Numbered from the stretch's first letter, positions 1 to 10,975 are shown. The stretch is DNA of 27,946 bases from a virus (IMGVR_UViG_3300023184_000430:1-27946), one strand, 5' to 3'. Translations and numbers: made by a program. The notes: generated by a model from the sequence alone, not told the origin.

Positions 1-89
1 AGAATCAAGTCTATGATCAAGTCTGGCATCAAGTCTCGATTCAAGTCTGGAATCAAGTCTCGATTCAAGTCAAAGAGAATGTCAAATGA
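1..89 (+). CDS. xxQV-repeat small protein, 5'-truncated by window edge (..NQVYDQVWHQVSIQVWNQVSIQVKENVK)
   Basis: Translated by hand from position 3; stop TGA 87-89 overlaps the next ATG (ATGA); tail KENVK matches the other family members. Confidence 0.75.
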   Translation, partial: NQVYDQVWHQVSIQVWNQVSIQVKENVK

Positions 90-175
90 TATCAGTTAAG
101 GATCAAGTCAGGCGTCAAGTCTGGAATCAAGTCAGGAATCAAGTCTCGAATCAAGTCAGAGAGAACATAAAATGA
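86..175 (+). CDS. xxQV-repeat small protein, 29 aa (MISVKDQVRRQVWNQVRNQVSNQVRENIK)
   Basis: ATG 86, TGA 173-175; ATGA overlaps at both ends; below the ORF-track size cut-off. Confidence 0.7.
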   Translation: MISVKDQVRRQVWNQVRNQVSNQVRENIK

Positions 176-357
176 AATCGGTCGTGGATCAAGTCTGGAT
201 TCAAGTCTCGAATCAAGTCTATGATCAAGTCTCGAATCAAGTCTGGCATCAAGTCTGGCATCAAGTCTATGATCAAGTCCATAATCAAGTCGGGATTCAA
301 GTCTGGTCTCAAGTCCGGGATCAAGTCAGGAATCAAGTCAGAGAGAACATAAAATGA
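172..357 (+). CDS. xxQV-repeat small protein, 61 aa, 13 units
   Basis: ORF track; head MKSVVDQV, tail RENIK; purine-rich AGAGAG upstream; ATGA coupling. Confidence 0.8.
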   Translation: MKSVVDQVWIQVSNQVYDQVSNQVWHQVWHQVYDQVHNQVGIQVWSQVRDQVRNQVRENIK

Positions 358-539
358 AATCGGTCGTGGATCAAGTCTCGAATCAAGTCTGGAATCAAGT
401 CGGGATTCAAGTCACGAATCAAGTCTGGATTCAAGTCTCGAATCAAGTCCGGGATCAAGTCTTGAATCAAGTCTCGAATCAAGTCTGGATTCAAGTCTGG
501 AATCAAGTCTGGAATCAAGTCAGAGAGAACACCAGATGA
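354..539 (+). CDS. xxQV-repeat small protein, 61 aa, 13 units
   Basis: ORF track; head MKSVVDQV, tail RENTR; ATGA coupling. Confidence 0.8.
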   Translation: MKSVVDQVSNQVWNQVGIQVTNQVWIQVSNQVRDQVLNQVSNQVWIQVWNQVWNQVRENTR

Positions 540-730
540 AATCTGTTAAAAATCAAGTCTCGAATCAAGCCCATAATCAAGTCTATAATCAAGTCAGGAA
601 TCAAGTCTATAATCAAGTCTGGAATCAAGTCTCGAATAAAGTCTTAGATCAAGTCAGGCATCAAGTCGGGCATCAAGTCTGGAATCAAGTCTTGAATCAA
701 ACAATTTATCATTCGCATAACAAGGAATAG
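536..730 (+). CDS. xxQV-repeat small protein, 64 aa, 13 units, divergent tail
   Basis: ORF track; head MKSVKNQV; the tail carries the AAGGA SD of the next gene. Confidence 0.75.
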   Translation: MKSVKNQVSNQAHNQVYNQVRNQVYNQVWNQVSNKVLDQVRHQVGHQVWNQVLNQTIYHSHNKE

Positions 731-734
731 AACA

Positions 735-1367
735 ATGAAGATTAATATTGGACCTTATAAATATTGGTTTGGGCCATATCAACTTTGTGCTTTACTGAAG
801 TATGTTGGTGTATCCGAATCTGGTCGTGATAATATTGCCGAAAAGATATCAGCAAAGCCATTCGACTGGTTTAATAAAAAGTTTAAGAAGAGAAAGATCA
901 TCATTCGAATTGATGATTATGATACATGGTCTGCGGATCATACTCTCTCGCTCATTATTCATCCTTTGCTTGTTAAGTTGAAGAATAATAAAGATGGTGC
1001 ACCTTATATCGATGATGAAGATGCTCCGGAAAATCTTAGATCAACGAGTGCAAAGCCAAAAGAAAATGAATGGGACACAGATGAGTTCCATTTTGATCGA
1101 TGGGATTATGTATTAGACGAAATGATCTTTGCTTTTGAAAAAAGTATCGACAATTCTTGGGAAGAAGAATTCTATTCAGGCAAATCTGATACTGAATGGA
1201 AATGTATCAATGAGGATGAAACTGATCCAGAAAAAAGACTATATGAAGCTTTCAGTGGACCAAATGACACTTTCAAAGTTGATCGTGATGGAATTAAAAA
1301 GATTCAGATTCGAATGCAGAATGGTTATAGATTGTTTGGTAAATATTATTCACACTTATGGACATAA
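735..1367 (+). CDS. Conserved phage hypothetical protein (210 aa)
   Basis: Long ORF with SD AAGGA; the motif RIDDYDTWSADHTLSLIIHP..GAP..RWDYVLDEMIFAF resembles uncharacterised large-phage proteins. Confidence 0.85.
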   Translation: MKINIGPYKYWFGPYQLCALLKYVGVSESGRDNIAEKISAKPFDWFNKKFKKRKIIIRIDDYDTWSADHTLSLIIHPLLVKLKNNKDGAPYIDDEDAPENLRSTSAKPKENEWDTDEFHFDRWDYVLDEMIFAFEKSIDNSWEEEFYSGKSDTEWKCINEDETDPEKRLYEAFSGPNDTFKVDRDGIKKIQIRMQNGYRLFGKYYSHLWT

Positions 1368-1368
1368 T

Positions 1369-1530
1369 ATGATATCAGTTAAGGATCAAGTCTGGGATCA
1401 AGTCTCGAATCAAGTCTATGATCAAGTTCGGTCTCAAGTCTCGAATCAAGTCAGGCATCAAGTCTTGAATCAAGTCTGGGTTCAAGTCGGGCATCAAGTC
1501 TGGAATCAAGTCAAAGAAAACACCAAATGA
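1369..1530 (+). CDS. xxQV-repeat small protein, 53 aa, 11 units
   Basis: True start most likely ATG 1369 (MISVKDQV, same head as 86-175), 1 nt after the upstream stop; tail KENTK. Confidence 0.78.
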   Translation: MISVKDQVWDQVSNQVYDQVRSQVSNQVRHQVLNQVWVQVGHQVWNQVKENTK

Positions 1531-1694
1531 AATCAGTTAGGAATCAAGTCTGGAATCAAGTCTTGAATAAAGTCTCGATTCAAGTCGGGGATCAAGTCGA
1601 TGATCAAGTCTGGAATCAAGTCTGGAATCAAGTCAGGGATCAAGTCAGGGATCAAGTCTATGATCAAGTCAGGCGTCAAGTCTGGAATCAAGTC
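1381..1694 (+). repeat. 12-bp tandem repeat array locus 2
   Basis: Same TCAAGTC 12-bp periodicity; 24 units by hand count. Confidence 0.97.
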
Positions 1695-1751
1695 GAAGAG
1701 ACATATCTTGACAAAACTCCAAATTATGATATACTATATAATGAAGAATGA
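1527..1751 (+). CDS. xxQV-repeat small protein, 74 aa, 13 units plus non-repeat tail
   Basis: ORF track; ATGA overlaps; the tail runs through a promoter-like sequence. Confidence 0.75.
   Translation: MKSVRNQVWNQVLNKVSIQVGDQVDDQVWNQVWNQVRDQVRDQVYDQVRRQVWNQVEETYLDKTPNYDILYNEE
1708..1737 (+). promoter_or_regulatory. sigma70-type promoter
   Basis: cTTGACA 1708-1713; TGaTATACT (16-bp spacer) or TACTAT (18-bp spacer). Confidence 0.6.
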
Positions 1752-2050
1752 AAAGGAACTTAGTGATGTCTGCTGATAATGGAATATATATTATTGAAAC
1801 TGATGGCCCTGAATATCGTGTTGTCTTTAGCCAAGCGATTGATAATATTTATGGTATGTTCAATGATGAAACAAATCATTGGAAAGGTGATGATAAAATG
1901 ATCCTTGAATATTTTGGATCATCCGTAACATATCGAAATCTTGAAGATGCATGGGATGCAGCCACCGTAATGAGTCATGAATATGAATATCTTGAAGATG
2001 GTATTTGTTTAATTCGTGATTTTAAGGATCGAAAGTTCTCAGAACTTTGA
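1748..2050 (+). CDS. Hypothetical acidic protein (start may be ATG 1766, MSADNGIY)
   Basis: ORF track; operon packing; AAGGA just upstream of the second Met. Confidence 0.75.
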   Translation: MKRNLVMSADNGIYIIETDGPEYRVVFSQAIDNIYGMFNDETNHWKGDDKMILEYFGSSVTYRNLEDAWDAATVMSHEYEYLEDGICLIRDFKDRKFSEL

Positions 2051-2060
2051 AAGGTAATAA

Positions 2061-2915
2061 ATGTCAATTCTTGTTGACTTGAATCAAGTATTAATCGCTA
2101 ATCTGATGCAGCAGATTAGTCATGATCCAAAAATGAAATTAGATGAAAATCTTATTCGGCATATGGTCCTGAATAGTCTCCGATCATATTCAAAGCAGTT
2201 CAAATCTAAATATGGTGATCTGGTAATTTGCTGTGATAGCAAAACTTACTGGCGCCGCGAGTATTTTCCGTTCTATAAAGCTAACCGTAAGAAAGACCGT
2301 GAAAAGTCTAATCTCGATTGGAATCTTATTTTTCAGGCACTGAACAAAATCAGGGATGAACTTAAGATTAACTTTCCTTATCGTGTGCTTGATATCGAGG
2401 GTGCGGAGGCGGACGATGTTATCGGTGTTTTGTCTGCTCGATTATCATCGAACGAAGACATTCTCATTTTGTCCTCGGACAAAGACTTCGCTCAACTCCA
2501 GAAGTATTCTTCGGTATCTCAGTATAGCCCTATACTCAAGCGATTTATCAAGAATGAGAATCCACTTTCTTATCTAAAAGAGCATATTATTCGTGGTGAT
2601 AGAGGGGATGGAGTGCCTAATTTTCTGTCGTCCGACAATGTTTTCGTGATAGGTGAGCGCCAGAAAGTCATAAATAAGAAGAGACTTACAGAATGGATTA
2701 ATAGTGATCCAATAGAATTTTGTGTAAATGATACTATGCTTCGAGGATACAAGAGAAATCAGACATTGGTAGATTTAGACTATACACCTGAAAGCATCAA
2801 GTCGAAGATTGTTGACGCATATGATAATACAAAGCCGAATAGCAGGCAGAAGCTACTCACATATTTTATTGAGAATAGACTCAAGAACCTCATTCCCATA
2901 ATCGATGAATTTTAA
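2061..2915 (+). CDS. rnh: T4-type RNase H / 5'-3' flap exonuclease
   Basis: Motifs ILVDLNQ, DSKTYWRREYFPFYKANRK, GAEADD, SSDKDFAQL, GDRGDGVPN. Confidence 0.95.
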   Translation: MSILVDLNQVLIANLMQQISHDPKMKLDENLIRHMVLNSLRSYSKQFKSKYGDLVICCDSKTYWRREYFPFYKANRKKDREKSNLDWNLIFQALNKIRDELKINFPYRVLDIEGAEADDVIGVLSARLSSNEDILILSSDKDFAQLQKYSSVSQYSPILKRFIKNENPLSYLKEHIIRGDRGDGVPNFLSSDNVFVIGERQKVINKKRLTEWINSDPIEFCVNDTMLRGYKRNQTLVDLDYTPESIKSKIVDAYDNTKPNSRQKLLTYFIENRLKNLIPIIDEF

Positions 2916-2928
2916 TAAGGAATAAATT

Positions 2929-3351
2929 ATGAAAAAGAACATACATGAAGTATTTGAAGAATTTGAGAAGGCCAAAACTAAGCCCGAAAGAATTAAGGTG
3001 CTTAAGGACAATAATACATATGAATTAAGAAACGTATTACAGGGCACATATGATCCAAGAATCGAATTCATTTTTGAGAAGATGCCAAAATATAAGTCCT
3101 CAGATGCTCCGATTGGGCTAGGGTATAGCACGATTCATCAAGAACTTGATAGGATATATCTATATGAAAAGAATAATCCTAGAGTAAGCCCAAATTTATC
3201 TAATGATAGAAAGAAGCAACTTCTTATTCAAACACTAGAATGTCTTGAAGAAAAAGAAGCAAAGATTTTTGCTAATATGCTCCTTAAGAAACAAGAAGTA
3301 AAAGGACTGAATGCTACAATCGTAAAGGAAGCTTTTCCTGAATTGTTCTAA
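2929..3351 (+). CDS. Conserved T4-like phage hypothetical protein
   Basis: ORF with SD AAGGA; resembles the conserved protein found downstream of rnh in T4-like phages (ends ..VKEAFPELF). Confidence 0.8.
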   Translation: MKKNIHEVFEEFEKAKTKPERIKVLKDNNTYELRNVLQGTYDPRIEFIFEKMPKYKSSDAPIGLGYSTIHQELDRIYLYEKNNPRVSPNLSNDRKKQLLIQTLECLEEKEAKIFANMLLKKQEVKGLNATIVKEAFPELF

Positions 3352-3405
3352 TATGCGTTTGATGCGTATCTTTATCATGAAAACCTTAAATGGGGATATA
3401 GATAA

Positions 3406-3801
3406 ATGTCAAGGATACATAAACATAAATCTAAACTTATTAAATTGAAGAATGATAAAAACAAAAATACATATATAACAACAAAAGAAGATTGTATCAA
3501 GTGGTCAAGAATAATAAACAGAGAAATATTTAATAATCAACTACCAGACATTGATAATATTGAAATAGGATGGCGAAGAAAATGTTGGGCATATTATGTA
3601 TATGATGTAAATAAAAAAGGCGAGAAATATATCAAATTGGCTATGAATAAAAAATATCCATCTAAACTGTTCTTTGTAGAAGTACTAGCACATGAACTTA
3701 TACATCACTATCAATTTCTATTTGGTGACCCAGTAGGGCATGGGCCATCATTTTCTGACTGGACTGACAAATTCAACAATAGAGGGCTAAATTTAGTATA
3801 A
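3406..3801 (+). CDS. SprT-like zinc metalloprotease
   Basis: HExxH (LAHELIHH) followed by HGxxF; N-terminal IINREIFNNQLP typical of SprT-like domains. Confidence 0.8.
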   Translation: MSRIHKHKSKLIKLKNDKNKNTYITTKEDCIKWSRIINREIFNNQLPDIDNIEIGWRRKCWAYYVYDVNKKGEKYIKLAMNKKYPSKLFFVEVLAHELIHHYQFLFGDPVGHGPSFSDWTDKFNNRGLNLV

Positions 3802-3805
3802 TACC

Positions 3806-3979
3806 ATGACACTAAAAAATAATACGTATCGTGAAGATTATGATGATTATGATGAAGAAGACCGAAAGCGTAATAAAAAACTTCATCAAGAACATCGACG
3901 ACCTGTGCGAAACTGGAAAAAAGTATGGTCAGAACATAGTGATGATATGGAAGACATAGAGAAGTATTACAATAAGTAG
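3806..3979 (+). CDS. Small charged hypothetical protein, 57 aa (MTLKNNTYREDYDDYDEEDRKRNKK...)
   Basis: Hand-translated ORF filling the gap after the SprT gene; not in ORF track. Confidence 0.65.
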   Translation: MTLKNNTYREDYDDYDEEDRKRNKKLHQEHRRPVRNWKKVWSEHSDDMEDIEKYYNK

Positions 3980-4006
3980 TAACTATTTATAGCATATACT
4001 AAAAGT

Positions 4007-4058
4007 TGTAGTAATATTGTTATGGAGCCTTCATAATCTTCGCAACAATATTGCTACG
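4007..4058 (+). other. Imperfect inverted repeat / RNA hairpin
   Basis: TGTAGTAATATTGTTATG pairs with CGCAACAATATTGCTACG (G-U pairs, one mismatch). Confidence 0.5.
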
Positions 4059-4065
4059 ATTTCTC

Positions 4066-4094
4066 TTGCATTGTTTCCGAGTTCATGGTAATAT
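4066..4094 (+). promoter_or_regulatory. sigma70-type promoter, probably giving a leaderless mRNA
   Basis: cTTGCAT-17 bp-TAATAT with extended TG; ATG 6 nt downstream of the -10. Confidence 0.6.
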
Positions 4095-4100
4095 ATACTC

Positions 4101-4415
4101 ATGATCAAGAAACGAAAAGCTCGGTGTGACCGCAAGCATATCATATATGAGATATCCCTAGGCCCTAAGTCTTATATCGGTATCACATATGTTGAAGCCC
4201 AGGCCCCGAAGCGGTCCATGCGTCGCCGGTGGCAAAAGCATGTAAGACGCGCTTTGACTGAAAACCGCGACTGGAAGCTTTGCAAAGCGATCCGGAAGTA
4301 TGGTCCTGAAGCATTTACTCTCCAAATACTTGAAATCGTTAGAGGAAAAGCTTCGGCTCATGCCCGGGAACGCGAACTTATATTCCAATACAACCCAATG
4401 TTGAATACTCAGTGA
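4101..4415 (+). CDS. Small stand-alone GIY-YIG nuclease
   Basis: IIY..(9)..YIG, RRWQKH, ERELI and terminal LN: canonical GIY-YIG motifs. Confidence 0.8.
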   Translation: MIKKRKARCDRKHIIYEISLGPKSYIGITYVEAQAPKRSMRRRWQKHVRRALTENRDWKLCKAIRKYGPEAFTLQILEIVRGKASAHARERELIFQYNPMLNTQ

Positions 4416-4454
4416 GCCATGCATTTCCGCATAGCAGCTATGTGATAATAACAC

Positions 4455-4483
4455 TTGACTCTATACGGAATAACTGCTATTCT
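4455..4483 (+). promoter_or_regulatory. sigma70-type promoter
   Basis: cTTGACT-17 bp-TATTCT with extended TG. Confidence 0.7.
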
Positions 4484-4521
4484 AATAGCATAAGTTGAAC
4501 AGACAAAGAAAGACCTACACT

Positions 4522-4680
4522 ATGAACAAGCGTAAATATAAGACCTACACTGTGGCCATGATGAACAAGCGCGAAAATATGACCGAATCTCGCGGGCTTG
4601 TTGCCGTTTTCTTGAAGAAGGGTGGCAAGATCACTGTGTGTGCTCCTAGTAAGAGCCGCTTTAAGACGTTCAAGCGTTAA
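4522..4680 (+). CDS. Small basic hypothetical protein (FLKKGGKIT motif)
   Basis: ATG 4522 follows the same 17-nt leader as the next gene; the ORF track starts at TTG 4495. Confidence 0.65.
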   Translation: MNKRKYKTYTVAMMNKRENMTESRGLVAVFLKKGGKITVCAPSKSRFKTFKR

Positions 4681-4709
4681 TCGAAACACGAAAAGAAAGA
4701 CCTACACTT

Positions 4710-4952
4710 ATGTCTACCAATATGAACCGCCTCTATGACTTTTGTGCTACTGACTCTTCATTTGCGAACGGCCGCGCCACTAAGCAGGTCGACTCGGGAA
4801 TGCCGACAAGCAAGATGTCTATTCCGTGTGATGGTTGCTCGAAAGCTAATATCTGTGCGATTAGCGGACTCGAATGTAAAGCTTTCAAGCAGTGGTCTAT
4901 CACGGGAAAATATAATAATAAAAACATCGCTAAATCTTTCCAGTCTATCTAA
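4710..4952 (+). CDS. Small Cys-rich protein, putative metal-binding (CxxC-x5-C-x6-C)
   Basis: PCDGCSKANICAISGLEC in translation. Confidence 0.7.
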   Translation: MSTNMNRLYDFCATDSSFANGRATKQVDSGMPTSKMSIPCDGCSKANICAISGLECKAFKQWSITGKYNNKNIAKSFQSI

Positions 4953-4954
4953 TA

Positions 4955-5128
4955 ATGAAATCTGTCCATAAACAAGTCTGGAATCAAGTCTGGAATCAAG
5001 TCTATGATCAAGTCTGGAATCAAGTCTCGATTCAAGTCTGGTCTCAAGTCTTGAATCAAGTCCGCGATCAAGTCTTGAATCAAGTCTCGAATCAAGTCTC
5101 GAATCAAGTCGATGAGAACATAAAATGA
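4955..5128 (+). CDS. xxQV-repeat small protein, 57 aa, 12 units (MKSVHKQV...DENIK)
   Basis: Hand-translated; ATG 4955, TGA 5126-5128 overlapping the next ATG; not in ORF track. Confidence 0.78.
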   Translation: MKSVHKQVWNQVWNQVYDQVWNQVSIQVWSQVLNQVRDQVLNQVSNQVSNQVDENIK

Positions 5129-5292
5129 AATCTGTCCATAAACAAGTCGAGGATCAAGTCTATAATCAAGTCTATAATCAAGTCTTGAATCAAGTCTCGA
5201 ATCAAGTCTTGAATCAAGTCTGGATTCAAGTCTCGAATCAAGTCCGGGATCAAGTCTGGAATCAAGTCAGGAATCAAGTCTGGAATCAAGTC
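4967..5292 (+). repeat. 12-bp tandem repeat array locus 3
   Basis: Same unit; 25 units by hand count. Confidence 0.97.
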
Positions 5293-5310
5293 GATGAGAA
5301 CATAAAATGA
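5125..5310 (+). CDS. xxQV-repeat small protein, 61 aa, 13 units
   Basis: ORF track; head and tail identical to 4955-5128. Confidence 0.8.
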   Translation: MKSVHKQVEDQVYNQVYNQVLNQVSNQVLNQVWIQVSNQVRDQVWNQVRNQVWNQVDENIK

Positions 5311-5591
5311 AATTATGTGAAATCGGACCAAATCAGATCGTAATGATCGTGCGCGGCAACTATATATTATGCTCATATAATATACCTGTTGCTGCACACG
5401 TGCCTAGTATCGGTTACTTTCGGACTACTAAGAAGTTTTCGAAAACCACCACTAAGCATATCAACAATTGGCTTGATGGCATTAATGCCCTCTGTGTTAC
5501 CCAAGACTCAATTGAGTCTCTTGCAAAAGATATATGTGATTGTCGCTTGACAGGCTACGATTCTTGTGATAAGATATCTAAACTGAACTAA
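5307..5591 (+). CDS. Conserved small phage hypothetical protein
   Basis: SYNIPVAA...FSKTTTKHINNWL motif resembles a widespread uncharacterised phage family; ATGA-coupled to the repeat gene. Confidence 0.75.
   Translation: MKLCEIGPNQIVMIVRGNYILCSYNIPVAAHVPSIGYFRTTKKFSKTTTKHINNWLDGINALCVTQDSIESLAKDICDCRLTGYDSCDKISKLN
5547..5575 (+). promoter_or_regulatory. sigma70-type promoter
   Basis: cTTGACA-17 bp-TAAGAT with extended TG. Confidence 0.7.
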
Positions 5592-5613
5592 ACCAAAGGA
5601 AAATATAACTACT

Positions 5614-6048
5614 ATGCCTCGCAATGCTAAATCTAACGGAATTCCTCCTCAGGTTCGCGCCCTTGCTGTAATCAAGCTGGGTGTGCCTGTCACTCCTTCG
5701 GAAATCAACAAGTGTGTTGATACTGGAAATTATGCTTCAAAGTGGATCCTCTATCTTAAGATCATGGGATTCGAATTCGAAGTTAAGAAAGACGGCCGCA
5801 ATGTCGTATCTTATACGATGATCTCCGAACCTAAGAATGCTGCTGAACTTCGCTCGATGCAGCCTAAGGTATCTAATGTAAAGAAGCCTGCAAAGGTTGC
5901 TGAGATTATTACCGTCGTTCCTAAGAAGCCCGTCAATAATCTTACTAAGATCAAGGCCGCTGCTGAGAAGCTTGCTGCTAAGACTGTTCCTACAGTTGAT
6001 CCCTCCTGGGATTCGATTGATGGTGTTGACATTAAGCAGATTGTGTGA
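5614..6048 (+). CDS. Hypothetical protein, possible N-terminal winged-helix DNA-binding domain with K/A/P-rich linker and acidic tail
   Basis: SD AAAGGA; own promoter and terminator; helix-helix-beta-hairpin pattern (fold call is inference). Confidence 0.75.
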   Translation: MPRNAKSNGIPPQVRALAVIKLGVPVTPSEINKCVDTGNYASKWILYLKIMGFEFEVKKDGRNVVSYTMISEPKNAAELRSMQPKVSNVKKPAKVAEIITVVPKKPVNNLTKIKAAAEKLAAKTVPTVDPSWDSIDGVDIKQIV

Positions 6049-6074
6049 TATCATATCTAGATAGGTCCAACTAC

Positions 6075-6104
6075 GAGCCGGGATTTATTCCTGGCTCTTT
6101 TTTT
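6075..6104 (+). terminator. Rho-independent terminator
   Basis: GAGCCGGGA-tttat-TCCTGGCTC followed by T7. Confidence 0.85.
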
Positions 6105-6120
6105 ATAACATGGAAAACAT

Positions 6121-6657
6121 ATGAATATTTTCTTCGTGGACACATCTCCAGCAATAGCAGCACAGTCATTGGTTGATAAACATGTTGTCAAGATGATTCT
6201 TGAAAGTGCTCAACTTTTATCTACTGCTCATCGTGTTCTTGATGGGCAAGAATATATTGATACGAATGGTAATCGTAAGATGAAACGATGGGAACTTCCA
6301 GATTCGCGCGAATCAGTTTTATATAAAGCAACTCATGTAAATCATCCTTCAAATATCTGGGCGCGGAGTTCAATTGAAAATTATAATTGGCTAACAGATC
6401 ATTTTTTTGCATTGTTACTCGAATATACATATCGATATGGCAAGCAGCATAAGTGTGCTGGCAGTATTGCATATACTCTAACTTCACCTCCAATCAATCT
6501 AAAAGAGTATGATATGACAGAAATTCCATCTTGTATGCCAGATATTTTTAGAATATCGTCAAAACCAGTCGAAAACTATCGGAATTACTATAAATTGGGC
6601 AAAGCCCATCTGCACAAGTATACAAAAAGAGCACCGCCAGAATGGCTTGTTATATAA
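6121..6657 (+). CDS. Pyrimidine-dimer DNA glycosylase / DenV-like family protein
   Basis: MNIF..DKHVVKMILESAQLLSTAH..THVNHPSNIWAR..YRNYY signature. Confidence 0.8.
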   Translation: MNIFFVDTSPAIAAQSLVDKHVVKMILESAQLLSTAHRVLDGQEYIDTNGNRKMKRWELPDSRESVLYKATHVNHPSNIWARSSIENYNWLTDHFFALLLEYTYRYGKQHKCAGSIAYTLTSPPINLKEYDMTEIPSCMPDIFRISSKPVENYRNYYKLGKAHLHKYTKRAPPEWLVI

Positions 6658-6660
6658 ATA
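6653..6660 (+). promoter_or_regulatory. T4-type late promoter
   Basis: Exact TATAAATA. Confidence 0.5.
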
Positions 6661-6669
6661 CTACAACGA

Positions 6670-6698
6670 TTGACAGGACTCATTATGTGTGATATGAT
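6670..6698 (+). promoter_or_regulatory. sigma70-type promoter, probably giving a leaderless mRNA
   Basis: TTGACA-17 bp-TATGAT with extended TG; ATG 5 nt after the -10. Confidence 0.7.
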
Positions 6699-6703
6699 AT
6701 ATC

Positions 6704-9996: not shown

Positions 9997-10617
9997 ATGG
10001 CTGATAAACCATCAAAAAGAGCGATTGATCTGATTGTTGCTACTGAAGTCACATCACAAGCATACTATGAAAAGAAGTATCGCAAGCCAGAGTGGCCAGG
10101 CGGTGCATCAGGTATTACAATCGCTGTCGGGTATGATCTGGGATATGCAAATGAAGCTAAGATTCGGAGTGACTGGACTGGCAAGATTTCAGATGATATG
10201 GTTGATTGTCTGGTCAAATATGCTGGTCTTTCAGGCGAAAAAGCTCATGCTAGACTTGCAGAGGCTCGCGGTGAGATTGATATTCCATGGAATGTAGCAT
10301 ATGATGTATTTTCAAATATTGATATGCCCGAATGGTGTGTTAAAGTAAAACGCGCTCTGCCAAACACAGACAAGCTATCAGAAGATTCATTTGGTGCTCT
10401 TGTATCTCTTGCATATAATCGCGGTGCATCTTTCTCTATGGACGGTGACCGGCGTAAAGAAATGCGATCAATTAAGGAACATATGGCTAATGAAGATTTC
10501 GATAAGATTCCTTCCGAGTTTCGTTCTATGAAGCGACTCTGGCCAACAATGCGAGGGCTGATTGTTCGGCGTGAAGATGAGGCAAAGTTATTTGAAGATG
10601 GGCTAAAAACCGCTTGA
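9997..10617 (+). CDS. Lysozyme-fold muramidase (pesticin-C/GH24-like), probable endolysin
   Basis: E..WPGGASGITIAVGYDLG, GALVSLAYNRG, GLIVRREDEAKLF; late-like CATAAATA at 9938-9945. Confidence 0.85.
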   Translation: MADKPSKRAIDLIVATEVTSQAYYEKKYRKPEWPGGASGITIAVGYDLGYANEAKIRSDWTGKISDDMVDCLVKYAGLSGEKAHARLAEARGEIDIPWNVAYDVFSNIDMPEWCVKVKRALPNTDKLSEDSFGALVSLAYNRGASFSMDGDRRKEMRSIKEHMANEDFDKIPSEFRSMKRLWPTMRGLIVRREDEAKLFEDGLKTA

Positions 10618-10647
10618 CATTCTGCTTCAGATATGCTATTATAAATA
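10614..10647 (+). promoter_or_regulatory. Overlapping sigma70 and T4 late promoters for tmRNA
   Basis: cTTGACA-17 bp-TATTAT with extended TG; TATAAATA at 10640-10647. Confidence 0.75.
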
Positions 10648-10649
10648 TA

Positions 10650-10975
10650 TTGATGTCGTTGATGTTTGACGATAGGCTGATGTGACGGGGGTGCGAATCC
10701 CCCCACCTCCACCATAAACAGAGGAACAGGACGCTGGCTCGATGAAGTGGGATAACGGATTGATCACCGTAAAGACATGGAGAGTCCTCTGTTTATGATG
10801 GGGGTGAATAGGATCGAACACAGTTGAAGGGCAAACGGAGATATCGGATTGATCACCTAATGATCAAAACAAGTAAATGCAGCAAACGATAATGCTCCAT
10901 TTGAGATGCGCTTAGCGGCATAGTCTCATTGTGTTTTCGGCAGCTTTTCATAGAAACAGAATAAAGCTGCCACCT
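10650..10975 (+). ncRNA. ssrA: Circularly permuted (two-piece) tmRNA, alphaproteobacterial type; tag AANDNAPFEMRLAA
   Basis: Acceptor piece ends in T-arm GGGGG-TGCGAAT-CCCCC + CACCTCC-A-CCA (10687-10714); coding piece starts GGGGGTG at 10800, giving an acceptor stem with G3.U; tag frame 10879-10923; outer ends approximate. Confidence 0.93.

Follow-up and report, generated by a model that had tools for sequence, protein, structure and literature searches.

A family of phage mini-genes built from xxQV tetrapeptides, probably detached from the repeat tract of DUF6745 proteins

The first 5310 bases of the IMG/VR entry IMGVR_UViG_3300023184_000430 (27,946 bases, referred to here as the window; it is the whole virus record, rated 17% complete) hold nine small open reading frames (ORFs) made almost entirely of x-x-Q-V tetrapeptides. 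This raises the question of whether such repetitive DNA codes for protein and, if so, what the proteins do. By its gene content the source is a T4-like myovirus, of which the record is a contig fragment; Pfam matches include RNase H, gp59, gp32, PhoH and the baseplate proteins gp53, gp25, gp6 and gp5-like. We give a probability of roughly 0.6 to the following reading: the nine ORFs are coding mini-genes of a large phage family, their products are predicted single helices that were likely detached from the repeat tract of proteins with the domain DUF6745 (PF20530, phrog_31813), and they would act as rods working with a DUF6745 protein.

Layout and coding status of the nine ORFs

The xxQV-frame ORFs of the window are all on the plus strand, at three loci:

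3-89, plus strand: mini-gene 1, its 5' part cut by the contig start; ...NQV, five full xxQV units, KENVK and a stop codon
86-175, plus strand: mini-gene 2, 29 amino acids (aa); MISV, 5 units, RENIK; its ATG overlaps the stop codon of gene 1
172-357, plus strand: mini-gene 3, 61 aa; MKSV, 13 units, RENIK
354-539, plus strand: mini-gene 4, 61 aa; MKSV, 13 units, RENTR; a tandem copy of gene 3
536-730, plus strand: mini-gene 5, 64 aa; MKSV, 13 units (three deviate: QA, KV, QT) and a non-repeat tail
1369-1530, plus strand: mini-gene 6, 53 aa; MISV, 11 units, KENTK; begins 2 nucleotides (nt) past a phrog_11543 gene
1527-1751, plus strand: mini-gene 7, 74 aa; MKSV, 13 units and a 22-aa non-repeat tail; ATGA overlap with the next gene
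4955-5128, plus strand: mini-gene 8, 57 aa; MKSV, 12 units, DENIK
5125-5310, plus strand: mini-gene 9, 61 aa; MKSV, 13 units, DENIK; overlaps a phrog_5643 gene

Counted in phase, the units number 6 + 5 + 13 + 13 + 13 + 11 + 13 + 12 + 13 = 99, in agreement with an earlier note, made from the sequence alone, that had described nine ORFs at three loci with about 99 units. The head is MKSV in six of the eight complete genes and MISV in the other two, and the tail (R/K/D)EN(I/T/V)(K/R) closes seven of the nine; 536-730 and 1527-1751 end in non-repeat tails. No two genes have the same order of units, and the residues at unit positions 1 and 2 (x1 and x2) are those that the note had listed, so that its picture of a fixed Q-V scaffold with two variable residues holds as a description. 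Seven of the eight complete genes encode 53-74 aa and one encodes 29 aa. Each copy has its own start codon preceded by a purine-rich stretch, and its own stop codon; ATGA overlaps (172/175, 354/357, 536/539, 1527/1530, 1748/1751, 5125/5128 and 5307/5310) chain the mini-genes to each other and to neighbouring genes. Tandem Repeats Finder reported a period of 182 nt with 82% matches, which corresponds to tandem copies of whole genes. At the DNA level the unit is NNN-NNT-CAA-GTC (12 nt), and the pattern TCAAGTC-N5-TCAAGTC-N5-TCAAGTC matched 67 times on the plus strand, whereas the minus strand and 100 shuffles gave no match at all. The CAA GTC part is altered in 5 of the 98 complete units, once silently (GTT) and otherwise with a change of amino acid (GCC, AAA twice, ACA).

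Since several frames are open in such a repeat, coding had to be tested. Every five-base word between two adjacent TCAAGTC motifs was examined, inside or outside ORFs, and the expected number of stop codons was computed from position-wise base frequencies. The 79 words of the window (23 kinds) contain no stop codon in the xxQV frame, against 6.7 expected, and the 1803 unique words of its relatives (IMG/VR loci L001-L140) contain none against 140.5 expected. The other two plus-strand frames of the 1803 words had 57 stops (54.3 expected) and 171 stops (151.4 expected), and the minus-strand frame that mirrors the codons had nine. Head codons vary silently among copies (TCG/TCT/TCA, GTC/GTT), whereas repeat codons do not, and the 171 unique mini-proteins of the relatives have a median length of 62 aa with a mode at 60-64. 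Because stop avoidance is limited to the xxQV frame, the heads vary silently and the length is narrowly distributed, the nine ORFs are real protein-coding genes, and selection keeps the xxQV frame open. The earlier note had read the lack of stops as selection on the protein and had named free stops in related arrays as evidence to the contrary; the relatives bear out the former and show nothing of the latter.

The arrays were also looked for in other data. Sequence words taken from bases 1-5400 were found in 20 DNA runs from 10 studies, labelled freshwater, lake-water or plain 'metagenome'; there was no RNA run among the runs sharing these words. Four public runs, each from a different study, cover the window's unique DNA well, and in them the arrays are found only as short contig pieces (66-156 nt) with alternative joints; array pieces in independent runs match the window with 0-2 differences. 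An exact 44-nt scan of metagenome contigs returned the window's own contig alone and no longer one. The arrays are thus present in independent data, and the exact order of units and genes is that of one short-read assembly; the Logan contigs examined stop short of spanning the arrays. Loose ends were seen at window positions 83 and 5044/5229 (runs X1, X2 and X5), where the start of a QV gene is joined to non-window sequence; at one such joint a unique stretch is followed by ATGAAATCA. These joints suggest strain variants, or more paralogues at other places in the genome.

Uniform silent sites, variable residues and a predicted helix

The frozen silent sites, which the earlier note did not remark on, could reflect a DNA-level motif, and a scan with any Q and V codon decides against this. 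The scan of IMG/VR (CARGT, five units) covered 122 stretches from an estimated 2300; many of the 122 are unrelated simple repeats, and of the 42 runs with varied xx a few probably lie outside the family. These 42 runs have seven dominant QV hexamers (CAAGTC 15, CAGGTC 11, CAGGTG 8, CAAGTG 4, CAGGTT 2, CAGGTA 1, CAAGTT 1), which differ between arrays, and the median share of the dominant hexamer within one run is 1.0. The third positions of both x codons are likewise uniform inside arrays and different between them. That the hexamers differ between arrays and are uniform within them indicates that conservation of Q-V acts on the protein, while homogenisation acts on the DNA of each array. To judge from these patterns the arrays undergo concerted evolution, in which 12-nt units would duplicate, slip or recombine.

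Three window paralogues of equal length differ pairwise by 30-36 bases, with 19-21 amino-acid-changing codons against 0-2 silent ones, and all differences internal to the repeat fall in unit phases 1-6. These comparisons point to a variety at x1 and x2 that is kept or favoured, and to arrays that grow and reshuffle through 12-nt units; the non-silent excess fits positive selection as well as repeated shuffling of the few kinds of unit at hand, the window having 23 word types. Among the 171 mini-proteins 203 distinct xx pairs occur, with entropies of 3.44 bits at x1 and 3.12 bits at x2. Two of the window's arrays (A and C) have an exact 47-nt block in common, equalled or exceeded in 3 of 100 unit shuffles; mosaic sharing in the other two array pairs is no greater than in unit shuffles. 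The arrays were also considered as the target of a diversity-generating retroelement. This was dropped because both adenines of CAA are constant; each of the five free positions varies among all four bases, and a scan of 37 window ORFs revealed no reverse transcriptase.

The window genes align with 75 relatives, at 36-69% identity to gene 3, and AlphaFold2 was run on an alignment of 80 mini-proteins. The model of gene 3 is one α-helix from residue 2 to residue 60, with a mean predicted local distance difference test score (pLDDT) of 91.8 and a predicted template modelling score (pTM) of 0.43. The predicted helix is amphipathic, V having mostly W, L, Y or R next to it. In this model Q and V would form a constant stripe and x1 and x2 a variable one; because the period is 4.0 and not 3.6, the sequence implies that the stripes wind slowly round the helix. 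Three structural ideas of the earlier note found no support. Its coiled coil with a four-residue period was rejected in canonical form (heptad of 3.5, or core period of 3.6-3.75), the sequence period being exactly 4.0. A coded repeat of the kind found in transcription activator-like effectors (TALE) or pentatricopeptide repeat (PPR) proteins, with units of some 34-35 residues that each form a helical hairpin and read one base, was rejected on the four-residue unit and the one continuous predicted helix, which has no repeat fold. Its Q/N-rich, amyloid-like polymer finds no support in the helical AlphaFold2 model, which is of a monomer and leaves aggregation possible.

Detached tracts and the DUF6745 neighbourhood

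About 160 IMG/VR stretches contain arrays of the exact motif. A profile built from the mini-proteins matched 4474 clusters at E ≤ 0.001 among 1.84 billion representatives, 684 of them at ≤ 1e-10 and 66 at ≤ 1e-30. Its top matches are proteins of 300-600 aa, and 20 of the 30 sampled carry DUF6745; these fused forms match PF20530 at E 1e-36 to 1e-6. In them an N-terminal domain is followed by a single in-frame tract of 24-50 units and then by the DUF6745 domain, in phage and in bacterial proteins alike. Thousands of DUF6745 proteins contain the tract, and the suspicion of the earlier note that QV tracts exist inside larger phage proteins thus proved correct. Gene 38 of Mycobacterium phage prophiGD102-1 (MW584211.1) has the same fused build with x-x-Q-L units. 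Searches with single sequences reached less far: tblastn of gene 3 with the low-complexity filter on found one phage record, a fused DUF6745 protein, and a word-index homologue search found one protein. Gene callers and low-complexity filters tend to overlook or mask genes of this kind. In bacterial assemblies, mostly metagenome-assembled genomes, the middle of DUF6745 proteins consists of x-x-Q-V, x-x-Q-L, x-x-N-L or x-A-A-T tetrapeptides or of a non-repeat linker. The central tract at bacterial locus L315 is made of x-x-N-L units, and those at L338, L326, L333 and L337 are of the x-A-A-T or x-N-A-T type, which recalls the A-A-x-x unit of phage Tweety gp54 (see below). Two QV-tract proteins without DUF6745 were noted, P0020 (741 aa), with a C-terminal subtilase domain (Peptidase_S8, E 2e-28), and P0065 (1629 aa), with weak Sacsin and MgtE_N matches.

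The mini-proteins themselves gave only sub-threshold matches, to DUF4816 and phrog_5189, in Pfam and PHROGs, and matched only unnamed small viral clusters in the ESM Atlas; PADLOC and NCBIfam returned nothing meaningful for mini-proteins or fused proteins. They fall below the DUF6745 test (206-position PF20530 model, 27-bit cut-off) and so have the tract only and are not members of the domain family. Compared with DUF6745 proteins that have an internal tract (prophiGD102-1 gene 38; L022:2338-3606, minus strand; L055:2317-3651, minus strand), the mini-genes are alike in the x-x-Q-(V/L) unit, in the 12-nt period with uniform third positions, and in a preference for W/R/G at x1 and D/N/A at x2, and the strongest matches of the mini-protein profile are to these tracts. 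They differ in having about 13 stand-alone units, a four-residue head, a five-residue tail and many copies, and they are more varied than the fused tracts (entropy 2.72 bits at x1 and 2.35 bits at x2 in the latter). The window genes have the features of the family (about 10-14 in-phase 12-nt units, an M(K/N)xV head and about 60 aa). On these comparisons the mini-genes are likely a detached form of the repeat tract inside the DUF6745 proteins of their relatives.

The two parts are indeed found side by side. T4-like contigs encode a DUF6745 protein of about 290 aa that has no tract and is surrounded by mini-genes. DUF6745 is present in 5 of 5 large array contigs and in 28 of 49 further ones, and most of the 21 array contigs that lack it are fragments rated 6-33% complete. 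Of 23 loci with DUF6745, 20 have between one and nine mini-genes no more than 3.5 kb away; these add up to 95 mini-genes, of which 92 share the strand of the DUF6745 gene, often at a distance of 4-100 nt. A phrog_27831 gene (about 117 aa) adjoins the repeat-less DUF6745 gene in 22 of the 23 loci. Its product (for example L300:2664-3014, minus strand; MAAQGDF...HSETGHNHV...) belongs to no Pfam family, and at L302 it is apparently fused to the N-terminus of DUF6745. Three complete genomes, in which we counted paralogues as the earlier note had suggested, have 11, 12 and 24 matches to the mini-gene profile, some of them in satellite arrays tens of kb from DUF6745. In a quick tree of DUF6745 C-domains, 20 viral split forms are grouped and nested among fused forms (Shimodaira-Hasegawa-like approximate likelihood ratio of 85, below the mark of 95; midpoint root only; several other 'split' labels are truncated ORFs), which suggests a single origin of the split form. 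The AlphaFold model of DUF6745 (pLDDT 88.5, pTM 0.74) had no PDB sequence match and no Foldseek match at E ≤ 0.001, and VIA-align reached a best Z of 4.2 over 49 residues, so that no solved relative was found.

That the tract is either fused to DUF6745 or neighbours it is our main argument for proposing a partnership. The mini-proteins would be interchangeable helical rods working with a DUF6745 core, and their variable x1/x2 face would give one core many surfaces. By analogy with Tweety gp54, such a system of rods and core may serve phage-host conflict. A more specific version holds that in T4-like phages a core of DUF6745 and phrog_27831 is armed in trans by 10-24 quickly diversifying single-helix 'specificity rods', each with its own x1x2 surface on an unchanging Q-V face and renewed by 12-nt shuffling, as a recognition repertoire. 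We put this forward as a speculative idea with odds clearly against it; if true, a protein-level repertoire would let one phage neutralise or sense many variable host proteins.

A number of points weigh against the partnership as we read it. Binding of mini-proteins to DUF6745 is deduced from gene neighbourhood and fusions, and a role in counter-defence from an analogy with Tweety gp54, which is not homologous; DUF6745 has neither a known function nor a solved structural relative. AlphaFold can be too sure of a single helix in a low-complexity repeat, the pTM here is 0.43, and the strict period of 4.0 winds the constant stripe round the helix, leaving partner packing hard to picture. The non-silent excess between paralogues could arise from reshuffling of a limited unit alphabet with no positive selection. 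The 23 DUF6745 loci include near-duplicates (L294/L295/L296, L300/L301 and L302/L303), and the TCAAGTC-based sample is ascertained on that motif. Lastly, the 27,946-base record contains no PF20530 match, and tblastn of phrog_27831 against the window gave nothing below E 0.9. For this phage, synteny and the relatives are therefore what the link is based on.

Among the relatives examined, the closest complete genome is G004, whose RNase H is 66% identical to that of the window and which has gene order in common with it. The order in G004 runs from three QV genes through DUF6745, about seven QV genes, phrog_27831 and five QV genes; further on follow two QV genes with an orf1748-like gene, then RNase H, DUF6433, an orf3806-like gene and a GIY-YIG gene, and after these one QV gene, an orf5614-like gene, a denV-like gene and PhoH. 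The DUF6745 gene of G004 starts about 7.7 kb upstream of RNase H, where the window has only 2.06 kb. The first array (1-730) is therefore most simply read as the last part of the main cassette, truncated where the contig stops. Gene order accordingly places the DUF6745 gene of this phage, as a prediction, just beyond the 5' end of the contig; phrog_27831 may be off the contig as well. The pair at 4955-5310 would correspond to the satellite QV gene that precedes the orf5614 homologue in G004. Overall, the observations and the coding claim of the earlier note stood, and its TALE and amyloid mechanisms found no support; besides the uniform third positions it had missed the link to DUF6745 and the cut made by the contig end. 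In another complete genome (G003, 149 kb) the RNase H homologue matches in two pieces (C1:55015-55978, minus strand) with in-frame stops, one TGA and two TAA, and may be a split or interrupted gene.

Alternative readings, analogues and genome context

The mini-proteins might instead act alone, as self-assembling helical rods (bundles, fibres or a scaffold) or as binders or decoys of host proteins, their place near DUF6745 reflecting common descent. The three arrays of the window and the satellite arrays lie away from DUF6745, as do seven matches at 107-109 kb in G003, where DUF6745 is at 69 kb. The length held narrowly at 60-64 aa, the amphipathic helix with V beside mostly W/L/Y/R, and QV tracts joined to other domains, such as Peptidase_S8 in P0020, would also suit proteins of this kind. 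However, at 20 of the 23 loci mini-genes stand next to DUF6745 and share its strand, fused forms are widespread, and a period of 4.0 residues is unfit for known coiled-coil packing; we therefore consider independent action unlikely. Another use of many paralogues would be as a silent or semi-silent library from which units are recombined into one expressed repeat gene, as in cassette antigenic variation. The seven bases of homology common to all copies every 12 nt, the 47-nt block of arrays A and C (reached by 3 of 100 shuffles) and the alternative joints in other samples are what such a library would leave behind, but each copy keeps its own start, purine-rich stretch, stop and length, the T4-like DUF6745 gene has no tract to receive units, and sharing within the remaining two array pairs does not exceed that in shuffles. 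Such a donor role is very unlikely.

Two further readings would deny the mini-genes a function as proteins, or their existence. If the arrays were DNA- or RNA-level elements, with TCAAGTC every 12 nt serving as a binding-site array or RNA sponge, the ORFs would be incidental. This would account for the TCAAGTC spelling that 94 of the 98 complete window units keep unchanged, silent sites included, and for the codon bias of relatives (CAA:CAG 4317:88 and GAT:GAC 1672:27, in a sample ascertained on the motif), and the minus-strand codon mirror frame and parts of other frames are open too. It does not account for the avoidance of stops in the xxQV frame only, with nine in the mirror frame, for other lineages that keep Q-V with six other hexamers, for the marks of genes (heads, tails, overlaps by ATGA and a length kept near 62 aa), or for the tract lying in frame inside DUF6745 proteins. 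We regard it as slightly less credible still than the donor library. An artefact of short-read assembly over a low-complexity repeat might be suspected from public contigs that break inside the arrays with alternative joints, and from a first array that touches the contig end; yet window words recur in the 20 runs of 10 studies with array pieces that match almost exactly, about 160 viral contigs have arrays of the same motif, and complete genomes have 11-24 copies. The chance of an artefact is very small. Two other candidates were rejected, namely a precursor of a ribosomally synthesized and post-translationally modified peptide (no maturation enzymes nearby, and a tract that large proteins carry internally) and a CsrA-type GGA sponge (GGA in only some units).

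Our preferred reading, of detached tracts working with DUF6745, can be set beside better-known repeat systems. TALE units have 33-35 residues, form helical hairpins and read DNA bases. The mini-genes are like them only in a constant repeat with two variable residues per unit; their unit of four residues is about one turn of a continuous predicted helix, and nothing points to the reading of nucleic acid. The repeats of fungal NOD-like receptors (NLR) are near-identical, vary at few surface positions and are reshuffled into a recognition repertoire; their units have 30-42 residues and a fold of their own, and occur in eukaryotic receptors with one array per gene. The likeness to the mini-genes lies in homogenised repeats with few variable positions, with no sequence or structural relation. 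Repeats of this kind are the highly internally conserved WD40, ANK and TPR repeats of the het-e/het-d family, kept alike by concerted evolution (PMC1805685, PMC4986451).

Tweety gp54 comes from phages. As described in PMC2884959, it is made of 12-bp units whose third codon positions never change, while two residues vary through their first and second positions, and repeat number varies between the phages of its group (with Che8 gp57 and PMC gp51). According to PMC9262239, gp54 mutants in repeat number escape the prophage-encoded Phrann gp29/gp30 defence. The gp54 group and the window genes both have a tetrapeptide encoded by 12 bp, in which two residues are fixed and two vary, and the DNA signature of the Tweety type (12-bp repeat, invariant third positions, two variable residues) is found in the window arrays. 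However, the unit is A-A-x-x in gp54 and x-x-Q-V in the window, and gp54 is a single gene with unique N- and C-terminal domains and no PF20530 match, whereas the mini-proteins have no flanking domains and are multi-copy. The two have no Pfam family in common, and by sequence gp54 is an analogue and not a family member. Among phage proteins with such a tract, it is the only one known to have been studied and to have a tested role. The anti-defence role that had been suggested for the mini-genes would have its sole basis in this analogy (PMC2884959, PMC9262239).

The precedent of gp54, a counter-defence protein tunable by repeat number, makes the family a good candidate for widespread phage-host conflict proteins in lakes and oceans. 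Its evolutionary signature, a constant scaffold with uniform silent sites and two variable positions, is typical of the recognition repertoires of conflict systems, and its scale is considerable, with 11-24 genes per complete T4-like phage genome and the 4474 protein clusters that match the profile. The split form offers a natural test of tract function, since tract and core can be expressed separately. The literature searched contained no published function for stand-alone xxQV arrays, as the earlier note had expected, and no paper in it names DUF6745. The gene system is apparently unpublished but recurrent, and the window is a truncated example of it.

Other features of the window are as follows:

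735-1367: phrog_11543 gene, directly before mini-gene 6
4101-4415, plus strand: small ORF for a GIY-YIG / SegE-like homing endonuclease (sub-threshold Pfam matches)
5307-5591: phrog_5643 gene, with an ATGA overlap with mini-gene 9
10610-10971, plus strand: permuted two-piece transfer-messenger RNA (tmRNA) gene of alphaproteobacterial type (Rfam RF04321, 86.7 bits; RF01849, 60.7 bits)

Megablast of 700-6700 against isolated phages gave no match. The gene at 735-1367 has distant relatives alone by tblastn (≤ 45% identical), and 21 IMG/VR relatives of it have neither arrays nor DUF6745 nearby. The ORF at 4101-4415 lies in a stretch of raised G+C (0.43), and G004 has a 55% identical copy at the syntenic position. 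ARAGORN gives AANDNAPFEMRLAA as the tag peptide of the tmRNA, and the type of this RNA hints at an alphaproteobacterial host.

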